Shown piece after piece: positions 12,700 to 57,548 of a DNA stretch of 64,000 bases; the first letter of the stretch is position 1, and the number at the start of each line of letters is the position of its first letter. The notes under the pieces are model-generated. The model saw only the letters and a list, made by a program, of their open reading frames with translations. It was not told the DNA's origin and did no database searches. The position numbers and the translations under genes were made by a program. Where the stretch lies: NCBI GenBank assembly GCA_029880545.1, contig JAOUOD010000002.1, positions 113,827 to 177,826 of the forward strand, in the 5' to 3' direction. This DNA comes from Gammaproteobacteria bacterium (lineage in GTDB: Bacteria > Pseudomonadota > Gammaproteobacteria > Acidiferrobacterales > SZUA-150).

Positions 12700-12715
12700 G
12701 CTCTAGTTATTGCAA

Positions 12716-37589: not shown

Positions 37590-37771
37590 AAACCCGGCCC
37601 TCTTTCCAAGCCCCGTTGACGATTTCCGCAAAATTCACAATAGATGTATATAGTATACTACTTTTATGCGGCATGTCTGTAGCGGGCAAGCCCCGGGGAC
37701 AAAATCCGGTGAATATACGGCTGCCTGGTCAGCGACTGCCGGCCAGGCTGGCGACCGGTTCACCGGCAGGG

Positions 37772-39703: not shown

Positions 39704-40025
39704 TTACTTTCACCCTGACTCGCACATCATTCTTTGAAAAAATTGCTTCGCCTTCTCCAACCCAATCCAGCCTGTACCCGCCGATCTCCTCACCAACAGT
39801 GACAATGGTGCCACCAACATTTGCCAGCCCGTTCTGCATTGATGCCAGTGTTGCCCGGAGATCAATGCCATGCGTACCGGAGCCGCTCCCCTGGCCAGCA
39901 GCCACGTCAACGCCGCTTGGTCGTATAAACGGGTTGTTCTTCAAGGGTTCCCGCCCAATATCATCTGCTGCTGCCGTAGGCAGCAGGATGCAAAACACAA
40001 TAATGGACTTGTGGATTGTCATCAT
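39690..40025 (-). CDS. small periplasmic PilP / GspC-HR-like assembly protein
   Basis: 111 aa with a signal peptide. The C-terminal beta-rich segment is GGTIVTVGEEIGGYRLDWVGEGEAIFSKNDVRVRVKV. Its position is between the PilO-like gene and the secretin, and it overlaps the secretin start by 14 nt. Confidence 0.5.
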   Translation of the reverse strand: MMTIHKSIIVFCILLPTAAADDIGREPLKNNPFIRPSGVDVAAGQGSGSGTHGIDLRATLASMQNGLANVGGTIVTVGEEIGGYRLDWVGEGEAIFSKNDVRVRVKVNGER

Positions 40026-41226: not shown

Positions 41227-42355
41227 GTTGATCCAGCCCTCTCAGGGCAAGGCCGGTAGCAATAGCCATATCGGTATTCGAACCGACGCTGCCGCCTGAA
41301 CAGGGGCCATTCTCGTTTGTCAGTGTCCGCAGCGGGTCGGGTATTGTGATGGCGATGTTGGCCATTCTTCCAAGCAGCCTGTCTACACCGGGCCACCTGG
41401 AAATTACCCCAAGCAGGTATATCCGGTTAGCTGACTTTCCGTGCGTCTGGGCGGCGGCATAAATCAGCGACCGGTTAACTTCGTCAACCAGTTTCATGAA
41501 CCCCGGCTTGACGATTTCGCGAATACCCTCGGCAATATCAGGGCGGCTGACCAGACCGTCTTTTTCCGGGTCTTCGTCCGCGAACAGGCCATTCTTGATT
41601 ATCAGGTCACGCGCCTCTTCCTGGCCCATATCCAGCATCTCGCTCAATTCGAAAAGCAGGTCTGCCTCGCCAAAGTTGACCTTGTGATCAAACAGAACCC
41701 GATCGCCGGAAATCATGGTCATGAAGCTGATCTGGTAACCCGTGCTCACAACCAGGATATTGCTCCCGGGGTCTTCGCCGGAAATAATGGTTATCAGGCG
41801 ATTTATAGCTGATGGCGCCACTTCCATAGCGGTAATACTCAACCCGGAGTGACGCAGACGCTCAAGAAACGCTATGACATCGGATTTCCTGGCGAAGGCA
41901 ACCATCGCCAGCCTGTCATCATCCGCACCGCCTGACCTGATTGGCAGGTAATCAATAACGTACTCGTCCAGGCTTCCATCTATCCGGTTTCGCATTATCT
42001 TGATGATCGCGTCTTCGTCCGCCTGGTCCTTGCCCAGCTGGTACGTTACCGGAACAATTCTGGCCATTCCCGGAAGTGCTGCAACAACGGCACTGGAGCC
42101 GGAAAATCCGTTTTGCTTCATCAACCGGCGCAAGGTAGCTTTCATTTCTCCCGGCTCAGACAGGAATGCATCCCGCTTCGTCGGATAGTCGGCGGACGCG
42201 CAACCGACCAGGTATTTTTCACCATTGGCACGCATTCCGATTTGCACCATATGTATTTTTTCCATCGAGAACTCGATGCCTATGGGTCCGAGCACTGAAC
42301 GACGGGAAACAAAACGATCGTACCTGGCAATTTTTTGCAGCAATTGGGACATCAT
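41219..42355 (-). CDS. PilM-like actin-fold cytoplasmic assembly ATPase-like protein
   Basis: 378 aa. Elements include GIEFSMEKIHMVQI..., LPGMARIVPVTY..., MVAFARKSDVIAFLERLRHSGLSITAMEVAPSAINRL, and VVSTGYQISFMTMISGDRVLFDHKVNFGEADL.... It overlaps the pilN-like start by 8 nt. Confidence 0.8.
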   Translation of the reverse strand: MMSQLLQKIARYDRFVSRRSVLGPIGIEFSMEKIHMVQIGMRANGEKYLVGCASADYPTKRDAFLSEPGEMKATLRRLMKQNGFSGSSAVVAALPGMARIVPVTYQLGKDQADEDAIIKIMRNRIDGSLDEYVIDYLPIRSGGADDDRLAMVAFARKSDVIAFLERLRHSGLSITAMEVAPSAINRLITIISGEDPGSNILVVSTGYQISFMTMISGDRVLFDHKVNFGEADLLFELSEMLDMGQEEARDLIIKNGLFADEDPEKDGLVSRPDIAEGIREIVKPGFMKLVDEVNRSLIYAAAQTHGKSANRIYLLGVISRWPGVDRLLGRMANIAITIPDPLRTLTNENGPCSGGSVGSNTDMAIATGLALRGLDQHG

Positions 42356-43521
42356 ACGTAATGCCGCTCTGCGTCGTTGTATATCTCGTGCACAATGACG
42401 CTGTTCGATTCGGTTTCGGCCTTGCTTTGTCTTTTGGCCCTGTACAGAACTTCATCAGCCTTCTTGAACAGGTGAGTCAAGGCAATCATGCGCCCGTCGA
42501 CAACGCTGGCCATGCCAATACTTATATTGATGTCTACAACATTACCGAGATGATTCGACTTTGTGCCGGCCAGAACTTCGACTGCATTCTCCAGCATCTG
42601 CTTTGGCTCCAGTCCTGGGAACAATAATGCGAATTCGTCTCCGCCCAGCCTGATCATGTGAGTGCTGTCTCTTATGCCCTGTTTTACCGCGCCGACCACC
42701 TTTCTCAGCGCCAGGTCACCGTAATCGTGCCCGTAGGTATCATTGATTTCCTTGAAATTATTTACATCGATAATGGCAAAATGGTAATGCATCGACCTGC
42801 GTATATAGTCTTCCACTATCATTTCATAATTGGTTTCCAGGAACCGGCGATTCCATGTCCCCGTCAGCGGATCTGTATAGGAAAGCAGTTCAAGCTCACG
42901 GTGCGCGTTTTCCAGGTTGTAACGGGTAATAATGTCATCCTTTCTGATACCGACATTCCGGGCAACAACGGTCAACGTCGTCAGCCCCGAACCTAGCATC
43001 AAAAACTGGAGGATCCACACGGTCTGAATGTCAAACCGGCCCTTTACACTCAACGTGGAAATCGTGAATACAACGTATACCAGCGTCACTACGATTGACG
43101 CCTCGCGAAGACCCCAGGGCACGAGCGGCACAACCATGAACAGCAACACTGCGCTCGACAACAACGCGGCACTGAACACACCGGTCTTGTGTGCAAGCAA
43201 GACAAACGCGGTTCCGGCGATAATCAGCAGCGCCATGCCAAGCAGGTACAGTATTTGTGTATCCTTGATAACCCGGGAAGAAACGGCAACATGCAGGGAC
43301 AGAAGTGTCAGCATGGAAAACGTATAGACGTAGGCGGTACCAAAGCCGAGCATGGCATACAGCGTGGTGGCAGCCCCGAGTAACAGCACAGACACCACCC
43401 CGAGAACCATGATCCCCTTGCGAACTTCCTCGCGAATAAACGATTCCGCGTAGTCAGTCAGCTCACCTTTTCGGAATTGAGTAACCGACCAAAGCTTGGT
43501 TAGTAGCCTGAATGCATCCAC
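42352..43521 (-). CDS. membrane-anchored diguanylate cyclase (GGDEF)
   Basis: About 190 aa of TM helices are followed by YTDPLTGTWNRRFL...IDVNNFKEINDTYGHDYGDLALR...IRLGGDEFALLF. The stop overlaps the pilM-like ATG (ATGA, 42352-42355). Confidence 0.88.
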   Translation of the reverse strand: MDAFRLLTKLWSVTQFRKGELTDYAESFIREEVRKGIMVLGVVSVLLLGAATTLYAMLGFGTAYVYTFSMLTLLSLHVAVSSRVIKDTQILYLLGMALLIIAGTAFVLLAHKTGVFSAALLSSAVLLFMVVPLVPWGLREASIVVTLVYVVFTISTLSVKGRFDIQTVWILQFLMLGSGLTTLTVVARNVGIRKDDIITRYNLENAHRELELLSYTDPLTGTWNRRFLETNYEMIVEDYIRRSMHYHFAIIDVNNFKEINDTYGHDYGDLALRKVVGAVKQGIRDSTHMIRLGGDEFALLFPGLEPKQMLENAVEVLAGTKSNHLGNVVDINISIGMASVVDGRMIALTHLFKKADEVLYRAKRQSKAETESNSVIVHEIYNDAERHYV

Positions 43522-43785: not shown

Positions 43786-46530
43786 CTACGGTATACACTG
43801 AACTTCGAGGTTCTCGAACCATACGATATCCCTGTTTCCCAATGCACCGGAACTCATGATGCGCAAGTGAGCGGTGTTGCCGATAAAACTGCTGATATCA
43901 ATCGCGACCGACGAATAGCCGGGGTCATTGGCCAGACCCTGATGTCGTGCCAACTCGGTCCACGGTCCGCTTGCCCCGTCTGCGGAAATTTCCACGATTG
44001 CATAGTCATTGGCATTGTCCAGCAACTCGCGACGGACGTCATAACGCAACGTCGCAGTCGCGGCACCACCAAGGTCCAGGGCACGCATCACCCCTTTCCC
44101 GCCGCTTTGGATGCGTAACTGGTAGTTACTGATGTCCTTAAAGAAACCGATATCGCCGGATTTCACTCCATCCGCCTCCCCTACTTCAATCCACGGACTG
44201 GTCGACCAGTCTATGGTGCCGGTGCTGTTGGCAAAATCCTGCCTGTCAAAAGCATCCGCGTAGGTGCCGTTACAGATGAACGACTCACCACCGCCACCAC
44301 CGCCTGACCCGCTGCCCTCGAACACCTCAATGCGCACGCTATCCATGTAAAATTCGCCGGTGAAGGTGCCGCCGGTGACAAACCGAATGCGAGTGCCGTC
44401 GACAAGATAAGCACCCAGGTCATACGTCTGCGAGGCTACATAGTCCGCATCATTTCCTGTCGTAATATTTGGACTCGCGTTCTTCCAGATCCCCTGGACG
44501 GCATCATAGATTTGCAGCCTCACTTCGGCGCCGGTATTGGCGCGCCGGTAATCGAAGCGGAGCTTGGCCGTGGCATATTTGCCCAGGTCAATCTGGCGCT
44601 CAACCGAGCGAGACATACCGGTCAACCTCAGGCGATTGCCGCCTGGGTCGGCATATAGCGGGTCATCCATGGCCTGGATATCGCCACTGCAGGCGCTGCC
44701 ATCGTCACTGTTTTCAATCCAGCCGTAGGCAGTCCAGTCCAGTGAGCCATTACTGCCGTGGTACTCCTGGGCTGAACCACAGGTGAAGTCAGAAAATTCA
44801 TCCAGGTAGTGTTCCAGTACACCGGTACCCTGCTCCAGGTAACGCACCAGGTTGGCCTGGTCATCCAGCACCACGTGGTCGCAGGTCAAGGGATTGATAC
44901 TGACACCCTCGGCAAAGCTCACCCCGAATGAGGTCAGGTCATAATCACGCAACAGGTTGCCACTAAAATCATAAATCGAGACGTGGTCGGTATAACTAAC
45001 CATAATCTTGTCGGTACCGGGCATGTGCACCAGGTCCACCACGCCCTGGGGAGTTGCATCATTCACCGAAAAACTGGTAATGGTTGTGCCGGTCTGGCTC
45101 ATGATGTGCAAAATTTCCTGCGAAGGTTCGAGGAACATGAGCTGCTCATCGTAGCTGCCCGATGCGGTTTTGCCGATATAGGCAATGGCCTTCACCTGGC
45201 TGACAAAGCTGATGTTAACGGCAAACTGGCTGGCACCATCCAAACTCATAAACACCAGCGTACTGCCGGCACCGTTCATGACCAGGTGATTGGCAAACAA
45301 GCCACCGGCCACGTAACCATGACCGTTAAAGTTACCACCGGTGGGTAGCTCACTGAGCAGGGTACCGGCCATATCAAACAGGTAAATACGCGCGGTGGTG
45401 GTGTCAATGGTGGTCCAGGCACCCTCGGCCGGCACGGTGACGCCGTTAAACACCGTGCCTTCAGGTAAAAACACGATACTGCGCGGGTTGTTGGAACCGC
45501 TGAACGACACACTGTAGTTCTTGAATTCAAAACTGGGGGTGTAATCGGCATCACAGGCTACAGGAGCGGGCGTCGCACATACCTTGCCGCACTCGCAGGC
45601 ATAATGAATGGTCAGCCTGGGGTGTTTGCTGGCATCGGCGGCATCACTGCTGTCGAACTCGGCGCCCTCATTCAGGGCCGTGGCCCGCAGCATCAGGCCA
45701 TGATTATCGTATTTGCCATCGACCCATTCCTGCACCAGCTTGGTCACATCCCAGCTGACCCAGCCCACCGCACCCGGGGTGACTGCCGTGCCATAGACTT
45801 TATTGTCAAAGTCCCCCCCGGCCGCGGACCAGGCCTGGCCGGACTGGGCGCTGTTCCAGCTGGCCTCACCGGTGGAATTATTCTGACCACCCTCATCCCA
45901 GTTACGGGTCATGCGGTGAATATTCAGCGTGGCGGGTGACCAGCTAGTCGTATTCGAATACAGTTCCAGCGTCGCCGACAGCACCTGGCTGCCGGCGGCA
46001 ACGGCGCCCAGATCAAATTTCATCAGGCCGCGGTGATAATCCCCCCACCAGCCGTTAACATGAATCTCATCGTCGATACCGTAATTTCTGCCAGCAAACC
46101 ACTGACGGATATACGTGTCTTTGGCCTCGGCGGCACCGGGCTGCAACACCAGCGTGTTCATGGATTCAAGCACCCTGAACTGATCATGGCGAATGGTGTG
46201 TATTGCACCGCTGGCGGTTTGCGCCTTCACCAGCATGTTCACCGGCGAGCCGTTATCCGGCGTAAAGACGGCCGAGTAACTGCCGCCGGCAAAGCTGGTT
46301 TGCGGCAACGCGTAGGCTGTGCAACCGGCACTATTGCTTTGCCAGTGCGCATGTTGCATACCGGCCTCGGCAATATACCGCGCTTGCAATTTCTGCCCCT
46401 GCAGGGATACGTTATTCAGACCCATGGCCGACTGCTGGCCCAACAACATGCCGATAGAGGCCAGCAAAAACAACGTGACCACTACGGTGATGAGCACATA
46501 ACCTTGCTGTTTATTGATCGCGGTGTTCAT
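43786..46530 (-). CDS. 914-aa PilX/GspK-like minor pseudopilin fused to DNRLRE-like, beta-rich and tandem C-terminal domains
   Basis: The N-terminus KQQGYVLITVVVTLFLLASIGMLLG is a pilin-like hydrophobic helix without Glu5, as in GspK/PilX. Residues ~125-310 resemble a DNRLRE domain (RGLMKFDLGAV..GSQVLSATLELY...LNIHRMTRNWDEG...WDVTKLVQEWV). A poly-Gly linker (GSGSGGGGGGE) separates two related ~155-aa C-terminal units. Confidence 0.8.
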   Translation of the reverse strand: MNTAINKQQGYVLITVVVTLFLLASIGMLLGQQSAMGLNNVSLQGQKLQARYIAEAGMQHAHWQSNSAGCTAYALPQTSFAGGSYSAVFTPDNGSPVNMLVKAQTASGAIHTIRHDQFRVLESMNTLVLQPGAAEAKDTYIRQWFAGRNYGIDDEIHVNGWWGDYHRGLMKFDLGAVAAGSQVLSATLELYSNTTSWSPATLNIHRMTRNWDEGGQNNSTGEASWNSAQSGQAWSAAGGDFDNKVYGTAVTPGAVGWVSWDVTKLVQEWVDGKYDNHGLMLRATALNEGAEFDSSDAADASKHPRLTIHYACECGKVCATPAPVACDADYTPSFEFKNYSVSFSGSNNPRSIVFLPEGTVFNGVTVPAEGAWTTIDTTTARIYLFDMAGTLLSELPTGGNFNGHGYVAGGLFANHLVMNGAGSTLVFMSLDGASQFAVNISFVSQVKAIAYIGKTASGSYDEQLMFLEPSQEILHIMSQTGTTITSFSVNDATPQGVVDLVHMPGTDKIMVSYTDHVSIYDFSGNLLRDYDLTSFGVSFAEGVSINPLTCDHVVLDDQANLVRYLEQGTGVLEHYLDEFSDFTCGSAQEYHGSNGSLDWTAYGWIENSDDGSACSGDIQAMDDPLYADPGGNRLRLTGMSRSVERQIDLGKYATAKLRFDYRRANTGAEVRLQIYDAVQGIWKNASPNITTGNDADYVASQTYDLGAYLVDGTRIRFVTGGTFTGEFYMDSVRIEVFEGSGSGGGGGGESFICNGTYADAFDRQDFANSTGTIDWSTSPWIEVGEADGVKSGDIGFFKDISNYQLRIQSGGKGVMRALDLGGAATATLRYDVRRELLDNANDYAIVEISADGASGPWTELARHQGLANDPGYSSVAIDISSFIGNTAHLRIMSSGALGNRDIVWFENLEVQCIP

Positions 46531-46913: not shown

Positions 46914-47945
46914 TCAATGACCGGCAACACGCACCCTTGTCTGTACACTCACCACTTCACCGTTCACCGGGCTGGTCAATTCCAGCAGCAGGTCCACCAG
47001 CACGGTTTGCCCGGCGGCTACCGGGACGCGTTCCACCCGAAAGCGGCTGACATGTTCAGCAATGACGTGCTCGGTGAAATCCTTTCCGGTCAAGACGCCG
47101 TCACCATCTTGATCCGCCAGTGACGGCAGGCGCTCAATCAACTTGCTGCCACTGAGGTAATACACCACCGGGTCGGGCCAGTCCTCGTTATGGCTGCCGT
47201 CTTCATCATCATCGTTCAGATTGCCTTCATCGACGGTGCCGTCCAGGTCATCATCCACCCCTGCCACGCCGGGCGAACCGTCGTGGCTGATATCGCCCTT
47301 GCTGTCTTCGTCGACGGAACCGTCACCGTCATCATCCTCGCCGTTGTTGACATCTTCTGTTTGCTGACCATCTTCGTCATCATCCACCCAGACACCGGCG
47401 TTGGGCGCGGCGCCATCATCAATCGTGCCATTACCGTTATCATCAATGCCGATAATGCCGTTCTTGCCGTCGTTGCTGGCATCGGCACCGGGGTCTTCAT
47501 CAATGCGTTCCGGTTCACCGGGATCACGGATGCCATTGTTATTCCGATCCAGGAAATCCCTGTCATTATTGGCATCGGCCCAGCCGTCGCGGTCGCGGTC
47601 GATGGATGGCGGCAACGTCACGGCCAGTACCGCGCTGGCAAAGGTGCTGCTGCCTTCCGGCACTGACGCCGGAAGGGTTTGTTCGCGCACATGTTCGCGC
47701 CAGTTGGTGGCCGGGTTATCCGCCAGTGGCAACAACAGTCGGCGCGAACCCAGTACCGAATCAGTCATGCGCTGCATGGCAAAGGCTGCCTGCTGTGCCA
47801 GCGTATTGGCATCACTTGCCTGTTGTTGTGCCTGCAGGCCCTGGCTGACCACGCCCGCCAGGCCACTCATTAACAATCCGGCCATTACCAGCGTAATGAG
47901 CAACTCCGGCATGGTCATGCCGCCTTGTCGACGGGCCGCAATCAT
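46914..47945 (-). CDS. minor pseudopilin (GspJ/PilW-like) with large Asp-rich Ca2+-binding-type repeat insertion
   Basis: The prepilin leader is MIAARRQGG|MTMPELLITLVMAGLL, with Glu at +5. Residues ~115-287 carry repeated DxDxDG-type motifs (DRDRDGWADANNDRD, DDNGNGTIDD, DDDGDGSVDED, DDDLDGTVDE, DQDGDGVLT). Confidence 0.8.
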   Translation of the reverse strand: MIAARRQGGMTMPELLITLVMAGLLMSGLAGVVSQGLQAQQQASDANTLAQQAAFAMQRMTDSVLGSRRLLLPLADNPATNWREHVREQTLPASVPEGSSTFASAVLAVTLPPSIDRDRDGWADANNDRDFLDRNNNGIRDPGEPERIDEDPGADASNDGKNGIIGIDDNGNGTIDDGAAPNAGVWVDDDEDGQQTEDVNNGEDDDGDGSVDEDSKGDISHDGSPGVAGVDDDLDGTVDEGNLNDDDEDGSHNEDWPDPVVYYLSGSKLIERLPSLADQDGDGVLTGKDFTEHVIAEHVSRFRVERVPVAAGQTVLVDLLLELTSPVNGEVVSVQTRVRVAGH

Positions 47946-48424
47946 CAGTGCCGCATACCGGTCATGGTTTCCATGGCCATGCTGGTGCCTTCAATCTCCA
48001 CGCGCAGCCACAAGGAATGAATCTTCACCTCGTGACCGGTATAGGGATTGCCGTCACCGTCAATGTCCGGGTCCATGATGGTGAAGGGATTGCTGTCGCC
48101 GTCCGTATTGCCAAAATCATAAAATGACAGGTACACCAGCCGGCGTCGCTCACTGCCGGCGCTGTCGGAATAACTGGTGGGCGTATTCTTGTTGTTGAGA
48201 CTTGCCGCTTCCGCTTTCAGAACAGCGAAAGGTTGTGCCAATATTTCCTCAGCACGCTGCAACAGGTGATACTGGTCGGTCACGGCAGACTGGTGCATCC
48301 CGGACCCCGTCACGCCTGTTTGAATGGCATCCAGCATGGGAACGAGCGCAATGCTCAATAGCACGGTAGCAACAAGAACCTCGATGATGCTGAGACCGGC
48401 CTGCCGCCTGGCATTGATGCGCAT
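47945..48424 (-). CDS. minor pseudopilin (GspI/PilV-like)
   Basis: The prepilin leader is MRINARRQAG|LSIIEVLVATVLLSIAL. It also carries DPDIDGDGNPYT. Confidence 0.8.
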   Translation of the reverse strand: MRINARRQAGLSIIEVLVATVLLSIALVPMLDAIQTGVTGSGMHQSAVTDQYHLLQRAEEILAQPFAVLKAEAASLNNKNTPTSYSDSAGSERRRLVYLSFYDFGNTDGDSNPFTIMDPDIDGDGNPYTGHEVKIHSLWLRVEIEGTSMAMETMTGMRH

Positions 48425-48438
48425 GCGAGCCCCCGTCT

Positions 48439-48987
48439 CTAGCTAATGGTTACCCTGCCACTTCTGCCATTAAGCGTGACGGTGCGACTGAACCCGTCGA
48501 GCGACAACACAACCTTGAACTCCCTGACTGCCGTGGTGTCCGGGTTGGTGCACCAGGCCATGCCCTGGCTGTCGAAATACAGTTGATCCATGGCGTTGCA
48601 CGAACCTATATGGACAACAGACTGGGAATTATTACTTACTGCAGCCGATGGAATGGCGGATACATCAATGTCATAAAGCTTTTTGCTGACAGGATGGTAA
48701 ATGTCATAGACCGGCGCCCAGGGAGACATCGCAGTATTGATGTTGAATACGCGCATCCTGTAGCTGGAACTCTCGTAGACGTAACCCACCGGGCTGCCCA
48801 TGCTGATAGCGCGATTCCGTGCATACCGCAATGCCTGGGCCACCTCTTCCGCAGCCACTTCCAGCCTTGCCGGATTGGTAGCTGCGAAATTCGGGGTGAC
48901 AACTGACGCTGCAAGACCCAGGACGATCACAACTGCAAGCATCTCGATCAGCGAAATCCCGGCCTGTTTTTTCAATAACATAAACAA
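48439..48987 (-). CDS. minor pseudopilin (GspH/FimT-like)
   Basis: The prepilin leader is MFMLLKKQAG|ISLIEMLAVVIVLGLAA. ...LEVAAEEVAQALRYARNRAI is typical of the GspH/FimT family. Confidence 0.8.
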   Translation of the reverse strand: MFMLLKKQAGISLIEMLAVVIVLGLAASVVTPNFAATNPARLEVAAEEVAQALRYARNRAISMGSPVGYVYESSSYRMRVFNINTAMSPWAPVYDIYHPVSKKLYDIDVSAIPSAAVSNNSQSVVHIGSCNAMDQLYFDSQGMAWCTNPDTTAVREFKVVLSLDGFSRTVTLNGRSGRVTIS

Positions 48988-49017
48988 ATCCTGTCGGCAG
49001 TCAGCAACATTTGCCGT

Positions 49018-49554
49018 TTAATGATCATCATAAGCCGCGTCATCGGCAATGAACTGGCCGGTGACATTATCAAATTTCCAGCCTGCCCCGACTGCAGCAC
49101 CGGTCATTCCGAGTGCACCGGCAGTAGATACAACCAGCGTATTGACGTCGGTAAGAGGATTGTTCGGCAGCAAGTCTTTCTTGAGATAAGGACCATACTT
49201 GAAGATCGCATCACGGGTGGTGCAAGACTGTCCTGCGGAATTCGTATAACGTGTCATCTGGTCGACAAACGACTGCACCGTATTGATTGCACCTGTTCCT
49301 GCTGCACCGCCACCCGGGCAGGTAGCGCCGGTTGCTGCGGCGGCACTCGGGTACTTGCCATGCTGCTGGTAATACAAATCAATTGCGCCGCGCATGTTGG
49401 CGAGCGTCGAATCCAGGGCCGACAGTTTTGCATCGTCGGTAGAAGATGCGAACTGCGGTACGACAATAGCAGCCAGAATCGCCAAAATGATTACCACAAT
49501 CAGCAGCTCTACCAGCGTAAAGCCCTGTTCCATCCTAAACATCAACTTTTTCAT
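49018..49554 (-). CDS. major pseudopilin, GspG-like
   Basis: MKKLMFRMEQG|FTLVELLIVVIILAILAAIVVPQF is followed by ...LANMRGAIDLYYQQHGKYP, which resembles the GspG/PulG motif (Y..d.G.YP). It is the first pilin gene after the platform gene. Confidence 0.85.
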   Translation of the reverse strand: MKKLMFRMEQGFTLVELLIVVIILAILAAIVVPQFASSTDDAKLSALDSTLANMRGAIDLYYQQHGKYPSAAAATGATCPGGGAAGTGAINTVQSFVDQMTRYTNSAGQSCTTRDAIFKYGPYLKKDLLPNNPLTDVNTLVVSTAGALGMTGAAVGAGWKFDNVTGQFIADDAAYDDH

Positions 49555-49817
49555 GTCAAAACCCCTGTTAATTAGCATCCACGAAACAGACAGGGCATTG
49601 TCCCAAGTTCTGTTCCCAACGAATATCGGTAACTCCTATTGCTACTTTATGTTCAAACGGGGAGAAAACAAGGCGTATAACATTAAATAACAATCTGAAT
49701 ATTTCGCTTTATCAATTTCACGGTAAATGTATTTTTTTGTGAAAATATTTTCCGGCAATACCCTTTGCCGTGTTCAGAACATGAACAATGCAATCCCGAG
49801 GCAATAATTTTTCACAA

Positions 49818-51005
49818 TCAATGCACCGCGCGAGAAAGCTTGAAAATAGGAAGGATTAGTGAACTTACGAGCAACCCGACAACCAGTCCCATGACGATCA
49901 ACATCAGCGGTTCTGCCAGTCTTGCCAGTGTCTTTAACTGCTTGGACAACTCGCGGTCATAATAGTCAGAAATCCTGGCCATAACCAGGGGCAGGCTGCC
50001 GGTTTCTTCGCCGGTTTTTACCATTTGCCTGACAACGGGAGGAATGAACTTGCTGTTGCTGAACTCCGGGCCGATTCCCTTGCCATCCTGGACGCCGTTT
50101 TGCATTCTCGTTATAAACTGCTGGAAAACGCTGTTTTGAACCACGCCCCTGCAGGAGTTCAGGGTGTCCACAATACCGACTCCATTTGCCAGCGATGTTC
50201 CCATAACTCGCAGGAACTGGCTCAGGTATATTTTTACAAATACGTCCTTTAACACAGGTATGCTGAGTTTTGCCCTGTCAAGTTGCAAGCGTCCTGATTC
50301 TGTTTGCATCCAGTAGCGTATTAACGCAAGGATTCCGAATATTGCCGCGATCACAAACACCCAGTAATGCCGCAAGATGTCGCTGGCTCGCATAAGCACT
50401 ATGGTTGATAGCGGTAACTGATCGGCGATTGCCTTGAACATGTCCTCGAACTTGGGAAACACGACGACCAGGACAAACGCCACCACCGCCAGGGAAAACA
50501 ACACAAGAAAAATCGGGTATGACATGGCTGACATTACCGTGCTTCGCATCTGCTGCTGCTTTTCATCAATGTCGTAGAGCTGGACCAGAACCTTGTCCAT
50601 AAATCCGCCGTTCTCACTGGCGGCAACCAGGTTTACATAAGACGGGGGAAACAGTTCGGGATGATTTGACAACGCAAACGAGAATGATTTTCCTTCGGAA
50701 ATTGCGGCACACATCGACTCGAGCATGGCGACATATGACTGATCCTCGGATTGACTCTTCATCGCTTCCAGTGCCGGTACCAGGCTTACGCCGGTACTGA
50801 GCAGCAGGGATAACTGTTCGGTGAAAAACATCCTGTCTGTAACTTGCAGGCTCCTGGGCCGGCGAAACGAAGCCTCCAGGGATGCAAGCAACCCGCTTAC
50901 ATTCAAGTCCGCGCGCTGGCTGCCCGTGTTTTTGCTGTCGATTGGCACGGCGGGACTCCTAGATGTTAATCGATCTCGATATTTCTTCCAGCGTGGTTTC
51001 ACCAC
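49818..51005 (-). CDS. GspF/PilC-family inner-membrane platform protein
   Basis: 395 aa with two T2SS-F repeats (FFTEQLSLLLSTGVSLVPALEAM... and FLRVMGTSLANGVGIVDTLNS...). The C-terminus ends with a PLMLIVMGLVVGLLVSSLILPIF helix. Confidence 0.9.
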   Translation of the reverse strand: MVKPRWKKYRDRLTSRSPAVPIDSKNTGSQRADLNVSGLLASLEASFRRPRSLQVTDRMFFTEQLSLLLSTGVSLVPALEAMKSQSEDQSYVAMLESMCAAISEGKSFSFALSNHPELFPPSYVNLVAASENGGFMDKVLVQLYDIDEKQQQMRSTVMSAMSYPIFLVLFSLAVVAFVLVVVFPKFEDMFKAIADQLPLSTIVLMRASDILRHYWVFVIAAIFGILALIRYWMQTESGRLQLDRAKLSIPVLKDVFVKIYLSQFLRVMGTSLANGVGIVDTLNSCRGVVQNSVFQQFITRMQNGVQDGKGIGPEFSNSKFIPPVVRQMVKTGEETGSLPLVMARISDYYDRELSKQLKTLARLAEPLMLIVMGLVVGLLVSSLILPIFKLSRAVH

Positions 51006-53013
51006 GCTTCACCCTCTCCAGGCCGTCATCAAACAACGTGGCGACATTCATTTCACGGAGATAGGTGTCGAGCTGATCGCGACTCGGATTCGAAATAATC
51101 AGCTTCTGAAGGGATTCGGTTGCAACCAGTACTTCATGCACGCCCTGCCTGCCTTTGTAACCGGAATCGTAACAGTCGTTGCACCCGCGGCCACGGGCAA
51201 GCTTGATGCCGGCATCCGCATTCCATCCGAACCGCTCGACCAGTTCCATCTCTGCCAGGTAGGTGGTCTTGCAGGACGGGCACACTGTTCGCACCAGGCG
51301 CTGGGCTACAACGCCTATCAGCGCCGATGACAACAGGTATGGCTCGACACCCATGTCGATCATACGGGTGACGGCGCCAATACTGTCGTTGGTGTGCAGT
51401 GTCGACAACACCAGATGACCCGTTAGCGCCGCCTGCACCGCGATTTCGGCCGTTTCCCGTTCGCGTATTTCGCCAACCATGACAATATCCGGGTCCTGCC
51501 GAAGAACATGCTTCAGAACCTTTGCGAATGTCAGGCCGATATTCGCCCGCACTTCATTCTGATTGATGATGTCGACCTGGTATTCCACCGGGTCTTCAAT
51601 GGTGACAATATTCTTCTCGATGCTGTTGAGATAGTTCAGCGCCGCGTAGAGTGTTGTGGTTTTACCGCTACCTGTCGGGCCGGTTACCAGGATCAGTCCG
51701 TAACTATGACCCAGCAGGCCGCCAAAGGAATCAACATTTCTCCTGGTCATGCCCAGTTTGTTGATATCGAGAATTGCCCTGTTCTTGTCAAGTACGCGCA
51801 ATACCACCTTTTCACCATACAGGCCCGGCAATGAACTGAACCGAAGATCAACCGGACGACCTCGTGTATGCACCTGGATTCGACCGTCCTGTGGCAGGCG
51901 CCGTTCCGATATGTCCAGGTTGGACATAACCTTGAGACGCGATACCACGGCCGAATGCAGCTCGCTTCTTAATGCCATGATCTCGTACAGGACGCCATCC
52001 ATTCGCAATCGAATGCGGGTCTTGTCACGTGAAGGCTCAATATGGATATCACTGGCACCATCCTGCACAGCACGCTGAATGATTGAATTTACCAGGTTGA
52101 TTACCGGGCTGCCGGCCGCCAGTTCATCAATCGTGTCCGGGTCGTCCTGACGCTCACTGCTGATAACCTCAAAGTCATCATCGACCTCGGCAATCAGGTC
52201 CGCGGTGAGATCTCGCTCCGAAAATATTTCGTTGAGCAGCTGAAAGATCCCGTCCTTTTCTGCAATTACCGGGTTAACCTGGCACTGCAGATGCTCCTCG
52301 ACCTCCTCAAGCGCGGGAATGGCCTGCGGGTCGGTGGTCGCAACCGTGACATGGTTCCGGATCTTGAACAGTGGCAGCAGTTTCAGCCGGGTACAGATAT
52401 CCTTGCCCAGTTCCCTGGCAACGGCCACATCACACAAACCGGTCCGCAGGTTGACAAATGCCAGGCCCAGTTGCTCACTGACAGCCTCCAGGACTACACG
52501 TTCCGGCGCCCATCCCTTGTCGACAATAATCTGCCCCATGCGCCTTCCCAGTTTTCTCTGCAACTGGATTGCTTCTTCTATGCGCGCTTCACTCACGACC
52601 CCCTTGTTGACCAGTATGTCTCCCAGCCTTGCCTTTTTGGGCTCCAAATGTTCATGAGTCGAAATGGTTTCATCATTGTCATCTATACAGGGTATGTAGT
52701 GACTTACGCCGGTAATGGAGAATATTTCCTTTAACAACGAGTTAATCCGGGTCAGCTTGAGCCAACCGCCCCGGTGAATCAGTTTGTCATTTATATCAAG
52801 AAGCTGCTCGATAGATGTGCTGTCGATAGCCTGTACGGATGCGAGATCAAGAACAATCCTGTCTTCTCCGACCTCCGTACATTCATCCACGCATTCGGAC
52901 AAATGTTCCATCATGCCTTCGCTGTCCAGGCGCTTCCTGGGCGCCAGGCATGTCATGACGCCTATGCGCGTACGAACCACATTTTCGGATTTTTGTTCCG
53001 CTGGCGAAATCAT
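50959..53013 (-). CDS. GspE/PilB/MshE-family secretion ATPase with N-terminal STAS-like domain and MshEN c-di-GMP-binding motif
   Basis: Walker A is GPTGSGKTT. Asp/His boxes are present, along with the tetracysteine CPSC...CNDC. Residues 129-181 match the MshEN motif, and residues ~12-108 are STAS-like. The ATG overlaps the stop of the GGDEF-EAL gene (ATGA, 53010-53013). Confidence 0.92.
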   Translation of the reverse strand: MISPAEQKSENVVRTRIGVMTCLAPRKRLDSEGMMEHLSECVDECTEVGEDRIVLDLASVQAIDSTSIEQLLDINDKLIHRGGWLKLTRINSLLKEIFSITGVSHYIPCIDDNDETISTHEHLEPKKARLGDILVNKGVVSEARIEEAIQLQRKLGRRMGQIIVDKGWAPERVVLEAVSEQLGLAFVNLRTGLCDVAVARELGKDICTRLKLLPLFKIRNHVTVATTDPQAIPALEEVEEHLQCQVNPVIAEKDGIFQLLNEIFSERDLTADLIAEVDDDFEVISSERQDDPDTIDELAAGSPVINLVNSIIQRAVQDGASDIHIEPSRDKTRIRLRMDGVLYEIMALRSELHSAVVSRLKVMSNLDISERRLPQDGRIQVHTRGRPVDLRFSSLPGLYGEKVVLRVLDKNRAILDINKLGMTRRNVDSFGGLLGHSYGLILVTGPTGSGKTTTLYAALNYLNSIEKNIVTIEDPVEYQVDIINQNEVRANIGLTFAKVLKHVLRQDPDIVMVGEIRERETAEIAVQAALTGHLVLSTLHTNDSIGAVTRMIDMGVEPYLLSSALIGVVAQRLVRTVCPSCKTTYLAEMELVERFGWNADAGIKLARGRGCNDCYDSGYKGRQGVHEVLVATESLQKLIISNPSRDQLDTYLREMNVATLFDDGLERVKRGETTLEEISRSINI

Positions 53014-55256
53014 TGTTGACGCTGACCATTGTGCACGCTATGAATGCTTGAAGTATCCGGTTCACACTCAAAGTGCTGGATCAGTGGTACCGGGAAACCG
53101 TAGGCGTATCCCTGCCCATAGGATATTCCCAGCGCTACGAGGCGGGCCTCGATTTCGGCATTCTCGACGTATTCCGCTACGGTCTTTATACCCATTACGG
53201 TTCCGACATGATTGATCGATGAGACCATCGCCTCTGAAATCGGATCTGTAACAATACCCTTGACCAGCATTCCGTCAATTTTCAGGTAATCAACATCGAG
53301 ATTCTTGAGATAGACAAACGAACTCAGGCCGGAGCCAAAATCATCCAGCGCGAAGCTGCATCCCCTTTCCCGTATAGTTGATATAAATTCCTTCGCGTCG
53401 TCTATATGTGAAACAGCCGCGGTTTCAGTTACTTCAAAACATATCTGGCTCGCATCCATTTCCGACCTGTCTATGATATTGACCAGAAATTCCAGGAACG
53501 ACTTGCTGCTGATGGACTGGCCGGAAAGATTAACGGCAAATACGGAACCGTGCGGAATCCTGTTGCCGTTTTCGGCGAGAATCCTGAACAGGTTGGTTAC
53601 AACCCATCGATCTATCTTTGGCATCAGGTTGTAACGTTCGGCGGCCGGGATGAAGTTCCCGGGCGCCACGACCTCGCCGTCTTCGAGACGCATTCTTACC
53701 AGGATTTCCACATGAACAGCGTCACTGTGCTGCTGAAGATCCTTGATTGCCTGTCCGAACAATTCGAAACGGTCATCAATCAATGCTTCCCTTATCCGGC
53801 CTACCCAGTGCATTTCATCCTTGCGGGCGAGCATATCCGTATTGGTGGAACTGAATGCCTTTACCTGGTTCTTGCCAATATCCTTAGCCGCCATGCAGGC
53901 TACCTCGGCAGCATTCAATGCCTCGGATACAAGCCTTGTACCCGCGTCTATGCAGGCTACACCGATACTGACGCTGATATCAAAGACCGAGGATTCCCAT
54001 TCGAACGGGCTCTTTCCGATTGCCTGCCTGATGTCCTCCGCCAGTCTTTCGGCGCGCTCAATAGGGCAACTTTCCAGCAGCACGCCGAATTCATCACCGC
54101 CTATCCTGGCGACAATATCCAGGCCCCGTACATACTTGTGAATGGTATCACCCGCCATCCTGATCAGCGCATCGCCGGCTTCATGACCGGCATTCTCATT
54201 CACGATTTTCAGCTGGTCCAGGTTCAAATGAAGGACACAGTGCTCCATGCCGGACATCTGGGCCGACTCGATACTCTTGCCTACATAATATTCGTAACTC
54301 TTTCTTGTATGCAGTCCGGTCAGGGAGTCGTAGGTCCTGTTCAGAAGCTTGGTGACCTTGCTTGCCATTACTTCCAGGAGGCTGCGATCACTGTTGGTAA
54401 ATTCCCTTTTGCCGCACATGCTGATTGTCAGCAATACTCCTGTCACGGCGCCATAGCCGGTAAACACCGGGCTGCACAATAATTTGTCCCTCATGCCCGC
54501 AATCAGCCCTTCTGCTTCAGACTGGTGATTGACCACGATACTCTTTCCGGTCTCCTTGACGTGCCTGAGCACCCTGTTCCTCAGCTCCGGCAACAGTATT
54601 GTGCCACTGCACATGGCACTGTCCTTGTTTCCAAGTGTTATGACAACATTTCGCTCAGGCAGAAAAAGAACAACGATTTCAACATCAAGATAGGAAAGGC
54701 ACTGTTTTACCAGGCTCGATAGCGTCTTGTTGATATCCTCGAATCCGGCAGTCTCTTCCTTGACATGATAGACAAGGTTCAACTCCTCGTAGCGCTCTCC
54801 AAGCTCCTCGGCCATCTCGTCGAGTTCCTTGTTGAGCATCAACTCGGTCTTGATGCACAGGGCAACATCATCCATCAGCTTTACGGTTCCGGGTATGTAA
54901 CCGGTAACACCATCCTGGTTTCGGTAAGAAAGCAACGCAGATACGTTGGCTATGTGACAGTCATTTTCAGTAACTATTCCGGCCTGGTAGAGTATTTCTG
55001 TTTCGCTCAGCTTGTGAAACGTAATTTTTCTGTCATGAACGCTGCTGAATTTCCCGCCGGGGAACAGGTGGATACTGGTGTCTGAATTATTGCTGGACCA
55101 GACGGTGAAGCCGTCCGATGTATACACGAGAAAACTTTCCACTTCAGCGACGCCGGATTCAAGCAGTCGCATGTACTTGGAGTAATCGATAGCCGCAAGA
55201 GATCTTCTATCCACCGGGAACCTCGTCTGCGGCAATCCTGGTTTCATTGTAATCAT
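53010..55256 (-). CDS. GAF-GGDEF-EAL c-di-GMP turnover protein
   Basis: The GGDEF domain has an RxxD I-site (RGLDIVARIGGDEFGVLL). The EAL domain carries EILVR, NLS, EVTE, DDFGSG, KIDG, EYVE and QG elements. The N-terminal region is GAF-like. The start is uncertain: 55256 overlaps the RR gene by 50 nt, and the alternative M is at 55172. Confidence 0.88.
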   Translation of the reverse strand: MITMKPGLPQTRFPVDRRSLAAIDYSKYMRLLESGVAEVESFLVYTSDGFTVWSSNNSDTSIHLFPGGKFSSVHDRKITFHKLSETEILYQAGIVTENDCHIANVSALLSYRNQDGVTGYIPGTVKLMDDVALCIKTELMLNKELDEMAEELGERYEELNLVYHVKEETAGFEDINKTLSSLVKQCLSYLDVEIVVLFLPERNVVITLGNKDSAMCSGTILLPELRNRVLRHVKETGKSIVVNHQSEAEGLIAGMRDKLLCSPVFTGYGAVTGVLLTISMCGKREFTNSDRSLLEVMASKVTKLLNRTYDSLTGLHTRKSYEYYVGKSIESAQMSGMEHCVLHLNLDQLKIVNENAGHEAGDALIRMAGDTIHKYVRGLDIVARIGGDEFGVLLESCPIERAERLAEDIRQAIGKSPFEWESSVFDISVSIGVACIDAGTRLVSEALNAAEVACMAAKDIGKNQVKAFSSTNTDMLARKDEMHWVGRIREALIDDRFELFGQAIKDLQQHSDAVHVEILVRMRLEDGEVVAPGNFIPAAERYNLMPKIDRWVVTNLFRILAENGNRIPHGSVFAVNLSGQSISSKSFLEFLVNIIDRSEMDASQICFEVTETAAVSHIDDAKEFISTIRERGCSFALDDFGSGLSSFVYLKNLDVDYLKIDGMLVKGIVTDPISEAMVSSINHVGTVMGIKTVAEYVENAEIEARLVALGISYGQGYAYGFPVPLIQHFECEPDTSSIHSVHNGQRQQ

Positions 55257-55605
55257 TAAGCATATCCAGGATTCTCCTGGTGCTTGCAGGTTTTTCGATA
55301 AACATCAGGTTCCTGATCTTGCGGGACCACTCGCGGTGTTCCAGCTCGGTCCGCGAAGTCGAGACAAAAATAAGGAATTCCCGATCAGGCATTTCGGCTT
55401 CTATTTTTTCGCACAATTCCCGGCCGGTCATTCTCGGCATTGCAATATCCGTTATCAGGACATCAGGCCGTCTTTCCATGATTTTTTCAAATGCCAGCTG
55501 CCCGTTTGGCGCTGACTCGACCTGGTAGCCATCACGCTCCAGCGCCAGCCTCAGCACCCTTATTACATGTGGCTCGTCATCAGCAATCAGTATGTAGCCA
55601 CCCAT
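55207..55605 (-). CDS. single-domain response regulator (CheY-like receiver)
   Basis: ILIADDEPHVIRVL...PDVLITDIAMPRMTG...FVSTS shows receiver-domain acidic pocket residues and a phospho-acceptor Asp. No output domain is present. The start shares one nucleotide with the kinase stop (TAATG). Confidence 0.88.
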   Translation of the reverse strand: MGGYILIADDEPHVIRVLRLALERDGYQVESAPNGQLAFEKIMERRPDVLITDIAMPRMTGRELCEKIEAEMPDREFLIFVSTSRTELEHREWSRKIRNLMFIEKPASTRRILDMLNDYNETRIAADEVPGG

Positions 55606-57548
55606 TACACTGCCTCCATGATGATGCCGCTGTCTTTCCGGAAGACAATGATGAACTCGGTACCTTCTCCGAGCACGCTCTCAACCAGCAACTCACCGTT
55701 ATGAAGCTCGATAATTTCCTTCGCCAGCGGGAGCCCGAGTCCGTGTCCGGGACGGTCTCTCACTTCTTCGCTTTCGGACCTGAAGAACTTGTCATAAATA
55801 TGGCTGATATCATCTTCAGAGATGCCTATTCCTGTATCCCGTATTGATATTGTTATCGACTGCGCATCCTCGGTTACCGTCATGGATACCTTGCCGCCCG
55901 GCTTGTTATACTTTATGGCATTGGTAAGGATATTGTTGATTGCAATACGCATCAGGTCCTTGTCCGCCGAAATGGCGCTGACCTGGTTCGGCAAATCAAT
56001 GCTGAATTCGCAATTCTTGTTGTAACCGTTTCTCGATATATTCTCGAAGGCATCCTCGACCATCTCCTTCAGCTTTACGCGCTGCCGGCTGATCTGCATT
56101 CCGCCGACTTCAAACCGTGTCAGGCTCAGCAGGTTGTTAATCAATGATGCAAGGCGCTCGACTTCGTCACGTATGACGTTTGACGCATCAATCTGGAACT
56201 CCCTGGATTTCCCTTCCTCTCCGATCAGTGCCTCGCTGTACATCGTCAGCACATTAAGCGGAGATTTCAGCTCATGGGCAACATGGGCAACAAATTCGGC
56301 CCGGCTCTGCTTGGCCAGCACTTCTTCCGAAATGTCATGGAACACAACCAGTGAACCGTAGGTTTTTTTCCGGTCCTTCACCGAAAACAGCGGGAATGCT
56401 TCTACGGAATAGGTCTTGTTTTTTTCATTCTCCGGAACAAATGACCAGTTATTGCCACGCTTGTTGGCCGGGGACAGGGTTTTTCCCCTTGGTTGATAAC
56501 CCTGCATTGCCGGGTGATTGACATACTCAATCAACCGCTTGCCCCGCAGGTCGTCTGACTGAATATTCAGGATATTGGATATCCTCGAATTGGCCATATT
56601 TACAATGCCGGTTTCATCCAGGACAACCACCGGGTCCGGCAACGACTGCAAGACCATTTCAATGCGTTCGCGCTTGTAGTTCAGGAACTTGGCCGAGGCA
56701 TCCAGATCGAAGTGACTCTTTTCGAGACTGCTGACCCGGTTGCCGGTATATTCGATATAGTGATTGATGCAACCGATCAGTTCACCGATCTCGCCGCTGG
56801 CTGTCACGTCTATGGGCTGATAGTCATTCCTGTTTGCCATGTCGTGGATGGCAGTACAAGCCGTTCTTATCGGCCTGATTTCCTTTTTCACCAGGTAGTA
56901 GGACAGCGTAGTCAGCAGAAACACCATCAGCGCCATCGTAGAAACAAATGGCAGGTACGTGCTGTCTATTCCATATCCTGGCTCAAAATAGGCAATCCTG
57001 ACATGACCGTAAAGCTCGCCCGATAATATGACCGGTGCGTGAAATTCGATGAAGTTCTTGTTACGACTTTCTCCCGGTATGGTACGACGCCCGATCCATG
57101 AAGACGGCTCTTCCTTTATCCTGAGCTCAGGCACAATTACACCTGACTTGGCTACCTCGCGGAGCTTCGCGCCGGAGCGATCTACAACAGCAACATAGGC
57201 GAATTCAGGCGTGGTCAGGATTTCCTTCAACACTCTCAGAACACCACCAGTCCCGGATTCAGTTACCAGATCCGACAGTGGCAAATCGGAAAGGATGCGC
57301 GCCAGGCTTACACCTTGCGCCTGGATAAACTCCATCCTGGAATCACGCCGGTTATCAAACATCATCAGGGTGATAAAAATGATCACCAATAACGTCATAC
57401 CGATCATGATCAGGCCGAGACGCTCGTTTTCAAGATTGGCTATACCACGCCGAGTAATCAATTCGGTATCCACCTGTCTGCCTGTATTATCAACCGCTTC
57501 AAGTATCGGCAGCATAATATGGGCCTTTAAAAAACGTGCCGCATGCAC
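55605..57548 (-). CDS. membrane sensor histidine kinase (periplasmic loop-HAMP-PAS-HisKA-HATPase)
   Basis: It has two TM segments flanking a ~150-aa loop, then a HAMP domain, a PAS domain (LQSLPDPVVVLDETGIVNMANS), the H-box VAHELKSPLNVL, the N-box NAIKYNKPGG, and DTGIGI / GHGLGL. Confidence 0.88.
   Translation of the reverse strand: MHAARFLKAHIMLPILEAVDNTGRQVDTELITRRGIANLENERLGLIMIGMTLLVIIFITLMMFDNRRDSRMEFIQAQGVSLARILSDLPLSDLVTESGTGGVLRVLKEILTTPEFAYVAVVDRSGAKLREVAKSGVIVPELRIKEEPSSWIGRRTIPGESRNKNFIEFHAPVILSGELYGHVRIAYFEPGYGIDSTYLPFVSTMALMVFLLTTLSYYLVKKEIRPIRTACTAIHDMANRNDYQPIDVTASGEIGELIGCINHYIEYTGNRVSSLEKSHFDLDASAKFLNYKRERIEMVLQSLPDPVVVLDETGIVNMANSRISNILNIQSDDLRGKRLIEYVNHPAMQGYQPRGKTLSPANKRGNNWSFVPENEKNKTYSVEAFPLFSVKDRKKTYGSLVVFHDISEEVLAKQSRAEFVAHVAHELKSPLNVLTMYSEALIGEEGKSREFQIDASNVIRDEVERLASLINNLLSLTRFEVGGMQISRQRVKLKEMVEDAFENISRNGYNKNCEFSIDLPNQVSAISADKDLMRIAINNILTNAIKYNKPGGKVSMTVTEDAQSITISIRDTGIGISEDDISHIYDKFFRSESEEVRDRPGHGLGLPLAKEIIELHNGELLVESVLGEGTEFIIVFRKDSGIIMEAV

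Follow-up and report, generated by a model that had tools for sequence, protein, structure and literature searches.

What does a STAS domain do at the front end of a motor that assembles type IV filaments? This question is raised by a gene in a stretch of 64,000 nucleotides from contig JAOUOD010000002.1 of a gammaproteobacterium (hereafter the window), which encodes a secretion-type ATPase that combines a STAS domain, a receptor module for cyclic di-GMP (c-di-GMP) of the MshEN type, and a T2SSE ATPase core on a single polypeptide. The control of pilus assembly and attachment by c-di-GMP is best understood at the level of ATPases of the MshE/PilB/GspE group. A receptor-motor that has its own interaction domain, cyclase, phosphodiesterase, and two-component system would be a natural case, with defined partners, in which to ask how global messengers attain local specificity. 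We interpret the protein as the ATPase that drives assembly (extension) in a self-contained, c-di-GMP-controlled type IV filament machine, in which the STAS domain would serve as a docking module for a regulatory partner, and we consider the chances of this interpretation being correct to be slightly better than even.

The three-part design of STAS, MshEN, and T2SSE ATPase is genuine. All three domains of the originally predicted architecture scored above their curated thresholds, and the coordinates that had been predicted for the open reading frame (ORF) and for the c-di-GMP-binding motifs proved to be exact when the translation was checked with regular expressions. In the full-length AlphaFold2 (AF2) model, the STAS fold is followed by a disordered linker (residues 113-122; predicted local distance difference test (pLDDT) values below 50), a four-helix bundle (residues 130-182), and the alpha/beta subdomain of MshEN_C (residues 196-265); a second disordered linker (residues 267-301) then leads to the ATPase. 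The gene starts with an ATG at position 53013 that shares bases with the stop codon of its upstream neighbour (ATGA), an arrangement that is also found in about a quarter of the ATPase orthologues, and the complete STAS fold requires this annotated ATG.

The presence of a STAS domain, which had been suspected at residues ~12-108, is supported by both profile and structure comparisons. The Pfam model STAS (PF01740) matched residues 36-112 with 38.4 bits (gathering threshold, 22.6; E-value, 1.1e-9), and a profile of 48 N-termini of the ATPase family retrieved TM1081 (9e-8), SpoIIAA (1e-7), and also other antagonists from the PDB. The AF2 model of residues 1-125 (mean pLDDT of 85) has the β-β-α-β-α-β-α topology of STAS proteins from residue 12 to ~108, with the elements β1 (12-17), β2 (20-25), α1 (34-47), β3 (52-56), α2 (65-80), β4 (84-88), and α3 (92-101). 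The top matches of this model in Foldseek were all STAS proteins, namely RsbV, TM1081, SpoIIAA, TM1442, and RsbS, with root-mean-square deviations of 1.5-2.1 Å and template modelling (TM) scores of 0.7-0.86. The best match was RsbV (6m36_B; E-value, 1e-6; TM score by target, 0.86), and MlaB (7ch7_E, 6xgy_B) and the STAS domains of SLC26 proteins were found at lower ranks.

Conservation of the protein is lowest in its N-terminal region, with 29-41% identity to the window sequence as opposed to ~60% overall, which is what one might expect if the STAS domain were an inert remnant of a gene fusion or a mere aid to solubility or folding. However, the fold is intact and carries invariant or near-invariant residues (G18, P25, D56, S65, G82, G83, W84, K86, and T101) in 53 of 53 species and in 120 of 120 clusters among the matches listed, and we regard a domain without regulatory function as highly improbable.

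The MshEN receptor module is complete by its sequence, with all ligand-contacting positions retained. The published MshEN motif (RLGxxhhxxGhhxxxxLxxxLxxQ) occurs in two tandem copies of 24 residues, which are separated by a spacer of five residues and form a module of 53 residues; leucine is fixed at positions 17 and 21 (PMC5013675). In the present protein, regular expressions place the first copy, RLGDILVNKGVVSEARIEEAIQLQ, at residues 129-152 (DNA 52558-52629) and the second copy, RMGQIIVDKGWAPERVVLEAVSEQ, at residues 158-181 (DNA 52471-52542), with the spacer RKLGR at residues 153-157. The original prediction held that the first copy satisfies every fixed position of the motif. This is true of the relaxed version given there and of the relaxed search pattern used by the authors of the MshEN paper, but not of the literal published motif, because positions 17 and 21 are occupied by Ile instead of Leu. 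The second copy, correctly predicted to follow a five-residue spacer and to end at residue 181, deviates by RMG and by Trp and Ala at positions 11 and 12, respectively. By their sequence, the changes in both copies are conservative and fit the relaxed pattern.

Profile searches of this region, as proposed in the original prediction, gave matches above cutoff. The NCBIfam model NF053729 ('c-di-GMP_motif', cyclic di-GMP-binding domain, MshE-related) covers residues 129-181 end to end (55.3 bits; cutoff, 38), and the Pfam model MshEN (PF05157) covers residues 182-267 (49.5 bits). Residues 126-237 align without gaps to residues 7-118 of MshE from Vibrio cholerae (5HTL; E-value, 3.8e-14), and the equivalents of R9, L10, G11, Q32, R38, G40, and Q61 in this structure are retained. 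Across the 53 orthologues, G131, L134, and Q152 are invariant, residue 129 is Arg or Lys in all but one, residue 158 is Arg or Lys in 51, and Q181 is conserved in 49. In the AF2 model, MshEN_N consists of four helices, which are followed by an alpha/beta subdomain. The tandem 24-residue motifs, the five-residue spacer, MshEN_C, and the T2SSE core are all shared with MshE of V. cholerae, whereas the N-terminal STAS domain and its linker are additions that no solved or described MshE, PilB, or GspE possesses.

The ATPase core matched the Pfam model T2SSE (PF00437) over residues 301-680 with 452 bits and contains a Walker A motif (GPTGSGKT at residue 445) and a tetracysteine zinc motif (CPSC578/CNDC611). 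The matches to PilF, EpsE, and PilB in the PDB (1e-127 to 1e-138) place the core at about equal distance from PilF of Thermus, EpsE of Vibrio, and PilB of Geobacter and Myxococcus, with which it shares the Walker A motif, the zinc-binding tetracysteine, and N1E/MshEN_C. None of the PDB homologues reaches N-terminal of residue 121, and the STAS extension sets the protein apart from all of them. The NCBIfam models for GspE (TIGR02533; score 581.9, cutoff 630.25) and PilB (TIGR02538; score 572.3, cutoff 675.65) both remained below cutoff, and the protein would be classified by its sequence as a PilB/GspE-type extension ATPase that is neither a GspE nor a PilB sensu stricto.

The partner proteins show the same pattern. 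The scores for GspF, GspG, GspH, and PilM, and those of the secretin for PilQ, GspD, and MshL, were all below the NCBIfam cutoffs, and Pfam scans of the window detected no GspC, GspL, or GspM. Because all structural components fall below the cutoffs of the equivalogs from type II secretion systems, type IVa pili, and the mannose-sensitive hemagglutinin (MSHA) pilus, the machine is treated here as a type IV filament system of its own that has no name yet. Unlike the systems of PilB, PilF, and GspE, it mixes PilMNO with GspG/H-like pilins and a secretin fused to an OmpA-like domain. It differs from MSHA in that MSHA-specific parts are missing by model score (MshL, 153; cutoff, 250) and in that the cluster carries its own two-component system, phosphodiesterase, and diguanylate cyclase. 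The operon of minor pilins, which ends in a very large protein, resembles the layout of MSHA clusters.

The architecture is not restricted to the window. A search for full-length homologues recovered at least 120 clusters at 59-65% identity. The 120 clusters among the matches listed all possess MshEN and T2SSE; a precomputed STAS or STAS_2 match is present in 105, and in the other 15 the query aligned over 98-100% at the full length of the family. In a genome scan with one genome per GTDB species, 53 loci (L002-L054) encode the full-length protein (54-65% identity), and the next-best ATPases, at about 43% identity, do not have the STAS region. An exhaustive profile search among 1.84 billion representatives yielded dozens of 50%-identity clusters over the STAS-plus-motif region, most of which are fragments from short contigs. 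Nearly all hosts are uncultured Gammaproteobacteria (Sedimenticola, Ectothiorhodospiraceae, Woeseiaceae, and Thiogranum), among them symbionts of Escarpia, Lamellibrachia, Olavius, and lucinid clams; there are also a few metagenome-assembled genomes (MAGs) of betaproteobacterial type. The gammaproteobacterium from which the window derives is not closely related to any representative, since its valyl-tRNA synthetase reaches at most 71% identity to those available. The STAS-MshEN-T2SSE proteins constitute an entire family that is conserved among environmental and symbiotic Gammaproteobacteria and has seemingly not been studied.

The original prediction had considered the fusion to be undescribed and had called for a database survey of the architecture. 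As it turned out, the architecture is not rare (53 species, at least 120 clusters), but no published characterisation was found. The literature searched, which included the MshEN paper but did not cover subscription-only papers, describes neither this gene cluster nor a STAS domain fused to any ATPase of the T2SSE family, including GspE, PilB, and MshE. The names among the matches listed are generic ('PilB', 'GspE', 'ATPase, T2SS/T4P/T4SS family'), with 'STAS domain-containing protein' occurring once. The components are all well known. Their fusion is conserved and uncharacterised, and it is visible in databases via precomputed Pfam matches and this one name.

Several apparent exceptions were rejected. 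Extreme rarity, as suggested by the single match of a word-indexed search with the N-terminal 264 residues, is a sensitivity artefact, since full-length, genome, and profile searches found a large family; word-indexed protein searches with short, divergent queries are unreliable for conclusions on rarity. An apparent natural fusion of GGDEF, EAL, and STAS (P0008 in L162, 6001-8013; also in L001), which would have pointed to an interaction in the manner of a 'Rosetta stone', has its junction out of frame and lies on a contig full of split genes; in the metagenome contigs of P0008 and L001, many neighbouring genes are split by frameshifts, which is typical of indel errors in long reads. L049, which appeared to be STAS-less, has the domain in another frame (~5000-5460), upstream of a frameshift close to the first of the two c-di-GMP motifs; the frameshift reflects an error of assembly or marks a pseudogene. 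Other candidates for fusions (P0095, P0110, P0120, P0122, and P0038) are unrelated proteins with multiple STAS or multiple MshEN domains. There is no evidence for an independent second origin of the fusion among the representatives that match from profile position ~92 onward or carry a STAS domain.

The original prediction had located a Ser at the position that is phosphorylated in SpoIIAA-type proteins and had postulated a partner-switching-type input into the motor. The residue itself is confirmed. In the comparison of the 48-sequence family profile with the PDB, Ser65 aligns with Ser58 of SpoIIAA, and position 65 is Ser in ~95% of the family (114 of 120 clusters among the matches listed and 50 of 53 GTDB orthologues), with Gly as the sole alternative. 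If Ser65 were the phospho-acceptor of a partner switch, a remote kinase of the RsbW/SpoIIAB type and a PP2C phosphatase would toggle it and provide the motor with a second input that is independent of c-di-GMP. The closest structural matches of the domain (RsbV, SpoIIAA, TM1442, and RsbS) are indeed phosphorylatable antagonists.

However, such modules are normally co-encoded, and Pfam scans of all sizeable ORFs and small intergenic ORFs of the window, where the original prediction had also seen none, revealed neither an RsbW/SpoIIAB-type kinase nor a SpoIIE/PP2C phosphatase. The same is true of four Pfam-annotated related loci (L001, L162, L163, and L164), and none of the genes that are conserved with the ATPase across 50+ loci encodes a partner-switch kinase or phosphatase. 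The score for TIGR00377 (ant_ant_sig) is only 31.7 bits (cutoff, 53.45), and the family consensus around Ser65 is NSAAL instead of the usual DSSG. Moreover, a conserved Ser or Thr is a general feature of the STAS interface and is present also in proteins such as MlaB, where Thr52 occupies the centre of the interface with MlaF and evidence for phosphorylation is lacking (PMC7367683). This suggests that Ser65 as such is not specific to phosphorylated STAS proteins but a generic interface residue. Because a linked kinase and phosphatase are absent from the window and the four annotated loci, the Ser/Thr is generic to STAS domains, and TIGR00377 remains below cutoff, the partner-switching reading is possible but unsupported, and we rate it as unlikely. 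The histidine kinase of the cluster was also rejected as a STAS kinase; its weak HATPase_c_2 matches coincide with a far stronger one to HATPase_c, and the protein is a standard HisKA kinase. The fold and the Ser at the phospho-site are common to the single-domain proteins SpoIIAA, RsbV, and TM1081, but here the STAS domain is fused to a motor ATPase, has a conserved β1-β2 hairpin, and is not linked to a kinase, phosphatase, or sigma factor.

Precedents for other roles come from STAS or STAS-like proteins that bind and control diguanylate cyclases (HsbA/HsbD, BgrV/BgrR, and SiaC/SiaD; PMC8457831, PMC5085249) and from the STAS protein MlaB, which binds and controls the ATPase MlaF via a face with the conserved Ser/Thr (PMC7367683). 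In all these pairs, STAS modulates a diguanylate cyclase or an ATPase, and in the present cluster it is part of an ATPase that is encoded next to genes for a diguanylate cyclase and a phosphodiesterase. By contrast, the STAS component of the Hsb, Bgr, Sia, and Mla systems is a separate protein, whereas here it is covalently joined to a c-di-GMP receptor and a motor; a dedicated kinase and a dedicated phosphatase likewise belong to the Hsb, Bgr, and Sia systems, and neither is linked here.

The precedent of MlaB and MlaF, together with the Foldseek matches to MlaB, is also compatible with a STAS domain that targets its own ATPase, in cis or in trans, by docking onto MshEN or the core of the same hexamer. 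It would then cause autoinhibition until c-di-GMP binds, or stabilise the hexamer, and an external partner would not be involved. The domain sits on a flexible tether directly before the c-di-GMP-binding helices; although devoid of a sequence consensus, the tether is of roughly constant length, with 16 to 24 residues in the span 108-129 across the orthologues. In addition, the β1-β2 hairpin (RTRIGVMTxLAP) is highly conserved, specific to the family, and unusual for STAS domains, which suggests a family-specific interface without a counterpart in ordinary STAS proteins. However, the full-length AF2 model, with a predicted TM score (pTM) of 0.47 and its disordered linker, does not confidently support any fixed arrangement of the domains within the molecule, and a purely internal role of the domain appears rather improbable.

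The interpretation that we favour, a STAS domain that docks a regulatory partner, takes its candidates from the gene neighbourhood. The ATPase gene is part of a cluster of ~20 kb, whose order (histidine kinase, receiver, GGDEF/EAL enzyme, ATPase, GspF, pilins, CBM96 protein, GGDEF protein, PilMNO, secretin) is kept in practically all related loci whose flanks are long enough (50+ loci; Table 1). The trio of kinase, receiver, and GAF-GGDEF-EAL genes is located upstream in every STAS-ATPase locus with enough flank, and conservation among the related loci does not extend to the genes upstream of the histidine kinase. The GAF-GGDEF-EAL gene is translationally coupled to the ATPase gene through the overlapping stop and start codons. 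In one locus (L163, 7074-7810), two tandem stand-alone receiver genes occupy the place between the kinase and the GAF-GGDEF-EAL gene, where there is one elsewhere.

Of the original claim that two neighbouring enzymes make or degrade c-di-GMP, the presence of the enzymes stands, and the role of the upstream one had to be adjusted. The window copy of the GAF-GGDEF-EAL enzyme has a GGDEF motif at residue 386, an inhibitory site (I-site, RGLD) at 377, and the EAL signatures EILVR at 517 and DDFGSG at 638. Among 47 orthologues, 45 conserve the EAL signatures (ExLxR, DDFGxG), whereas only 11 have a canonical or near-canonical GGDEF motif, which otherwise reads GSDKF, GEGRF, DADVF, or similar. The RxxD I-site is often retained in orthologues with a degenerate GGDEF motif (loci L003-L054); the window copy belongs to the minority that keeps a canonical GGDEF motif together with the I-site. 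Because the EAL signatures are kept and the GGDEF motif is mostly degenerate, the family-wide activity of this enzyme should be the degradation of c-di-GMP. In the membrane GGDEF protein, the motif is intact in 13 of 14 full-length orthologues, which makes this protein the likely dedicated cyclase of the cluster.

The nearest STAS-less ATPases, in four loci from MAGs of Planctomycetia and Omnitrophota (L055, L057, L058, and L059), match from residue ~126 with ~42% identity. They have receiver-like genes, and in three of these loci also kinase-like genes, at a distance of up to ~1 kb, with most of the genes of both kinds on the upstream side. The coupling of this ATPase clade to two-component systems may be older than the STAS fusion.

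By homology with MshE of V. cholerae, the binding of c-di-GMP to MshEN would turn on filament assembly. A messenger circuit of its own is encoded in the cluster, consisting of the membrane diguanylate cyclase, the GAF-(GGDEF)-EAL phosphodiesterase, and the histidine kinase with its CheY-like receiver, and the putative carbohydrate-binding (CBM96) tip of the filament suggests that the output is probably attachment to surfaces or hosts. The STAS domain would dock a protein partner through the helical face around Ser65, and most likely tether a signalling protein of the operon (the phosphodiesterase, the cyclase, or the receiver) to the motor, where the local sensing of c-di-GMP would be gated by two-component input; each hexamer would have six STAS domains tethered beside the c-di-GMP receptor. 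Docking of a signalling protein encoded in the operon seems more likely than a partner switch in the style of sigma-factor regulation. In the most explicit form of this proposal, the STAS domain recruits the phosphodiesterase, the membrane cyclase, or the phosphorylated receiver onto the hexamer and creates a motor-resident 'local c-di-GMP signalosome', in which the source, sink, and receptor of the messenger are held together and to which Ser65 might add a phospho-switch. This form is tentative, and we consider it possible rather than probable; if true, it would represent a new wiring of second-messenger specificity into a type IV filament motor, in chemosynthetic symbionts and sedimentary sulfur oxidisers.

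Several points weigh against the docking interpretation or parts of it. The partner of the STAS domain is assigned from context and precedent rather than from direct evidence, and the constant company of the kinase, receiver, and GAF-GGDEF-EAL genes is confounded by vertical inheritance of the whole cluster. A near-strict Ser65 that is never replaced by Thr, Asp, or Asn is also expected of a phospho-acceptor, and the related loci were viewed at +/-10 kb, which allows for partner-switch kinases elsewhere in those genomes. The binding of c-di-GMP and its sign (activation or inhibition) are predicted by homology only, and with all structural components below the equivalog cutoffs, both a pilus and substrate secretion are possible.

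The family extends the known contexts of STAS domains to the motors of type IV filaments. It occurs in symbionts of tubeworms, lucinid clams, and gutless worms and in abundant sediment Gammaproteobacteria, where regulated adhesion by a filament whose tip binds carbohydrates could be relevant to the colonisation of hosts or particles.

Table 1. Features of the STAS-MshEN-T2SSE ATPase and its gene cluster, with positions in the window and the evidence for each assignment.
Feature	Position	Strand	Evidence
PAS-HisKA-HATPase_c histidine kinase	55605..57548	(-)	Pfam; synteny
Stand-alone CheY-like receiver	55207..55605	(-)	Pfam Response_reg, 79 bits; synteny
GAF-GGDEF-EAL enzyme	53010..55256	(-)	Pfam; motifs; orthologue survey
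STAS-MshEN-T2SSE ATPase (684 amino acids, ORF intact)	50959..53013	(-)	Translation; Pfam and NCBIfam domains
STAS domain, residues 12-112	52678..52980	(-)	Pfam PF01740; PDB profile matches; AF2; Foldseek
Ser65 codon, structural equivalent of the SpoIIAA Ser58 phospho-site	52819..52821	(-)	Alignment
Flexible linker, residues 113-128	52630..52677	(-)	Low pLDDT; length variation among orthologues
MshEN_N c-di-GMP-binding module (predicted), residues 129-181	52471..52629	(-)	NF053729; regular expression; 5HTL alignment; AF2
MshEN_C/N1E subdomain, residues 182-267	52213..52470	(-)	Pfam PF05157, 49.5 bits; AF2 secondary structure
T2SSE ATPase core (N2 and C-terminal domain), residues 301-680	50974..52113	(-)	Pfam PF00437, 452 bits; motifs; PDB matches
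GspF/PilC-type platform protein	49818..51005	(-)	Pfam T2SSF, 178 bits; NCBIfam GspF, 297 (cutoff 424)
Four prepilin-type genes	46914..49578	(-)	N_methyl motifs; sub-threshold GspG, GspH, and PilV matches
GspG-like prepilin	49018-49578	(-)	
GspH-like prepilin	48439-48987	(-)	
Other prepilin	47945-48424	(-)	
Other prepilin	46914-47945	(-)	
101-amino-acid ORF	between prepilin genes and CBM96 gene	(-)	
CBM96/disaggregatase-repeat protein (914 amino acids)	43786..46530	(-)	Pfam CBM96, 63 bits; N-terminal sequence; conserved position
Polytopic membrane-anchored diguanylate cyclase (predicted)	42352..43521	(-)	Pfam GGDEF, 112 bits; GGDEF at 293
PilM (alignment complex)	41219-42355	(-)	Pfam; synteny
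PilN (alignment complex)	40576-41226	(-)	Pfam; synteny
PilO (alignment complex)	40022-40579	(-)	Pfam; synteny
Small ORF	between PilMNO and secretin	(-)	
Secretin with N-terminal OmpA-like peptidoglycan-binding domain	37772..39703	(-)	Pfam Secretin, 149 bits; OmpA, 39 bits

Among the structural genes of the cluster, the true start of the GspF/PilC-type gene is probably downstream of the listed GTG. The CBM96 protein has a pilin-like hydrophobic helix after KQQG (KQQG|YVLITVV) without the usual Glu5, like tip pilins of the GspK/PilX type, and its orthologues (~800 to 1200 amino acids) are always encoded after the minor pilins; it is a candidate for a giant tip adhesin or giant minor pilin. The OmpA-like domain of the secretin comprises residues 54-156, an unusual fusion for secretins of the PilQ/GspD type, and homologues of the secretin in related loci have 44-58% identity. 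Directly downstream of the secretin lies a gene with a hemerythrin domain (37152-37631, minus strand), which could be an accessory for the sensing of O2, NO, or iron, or unrelated to the cluster.

A canonical regulatory unit of type IVa pili is located elsewhere in the window (8581-19065, plus strand). It consists of a PilS-like kinase (6TM_PilS), a sigma-54-dependent regulator of the PilR type, and a prepilin gene (12048-12641), followed by genes for a TPR protein, two glycosyltransferases, and three S-adenosylmethionine-dependent methyltransferases that possibly form an island for pilin modification. Because this unit is separate from the STAS-ATPase cluster, the organism should possess at least two type IV filament systems. 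The window is an ordinary chromosomal context and not a mobile element; it also contains a cytochrome c maturation set (ccmABCE..., ccmFH) split over both strands (20476-27230) and, at other positions, the housekeeping genes for LptF/LptG, valyl-tRNA synthetase (ValRS), Obg, MurJ, and RibF.

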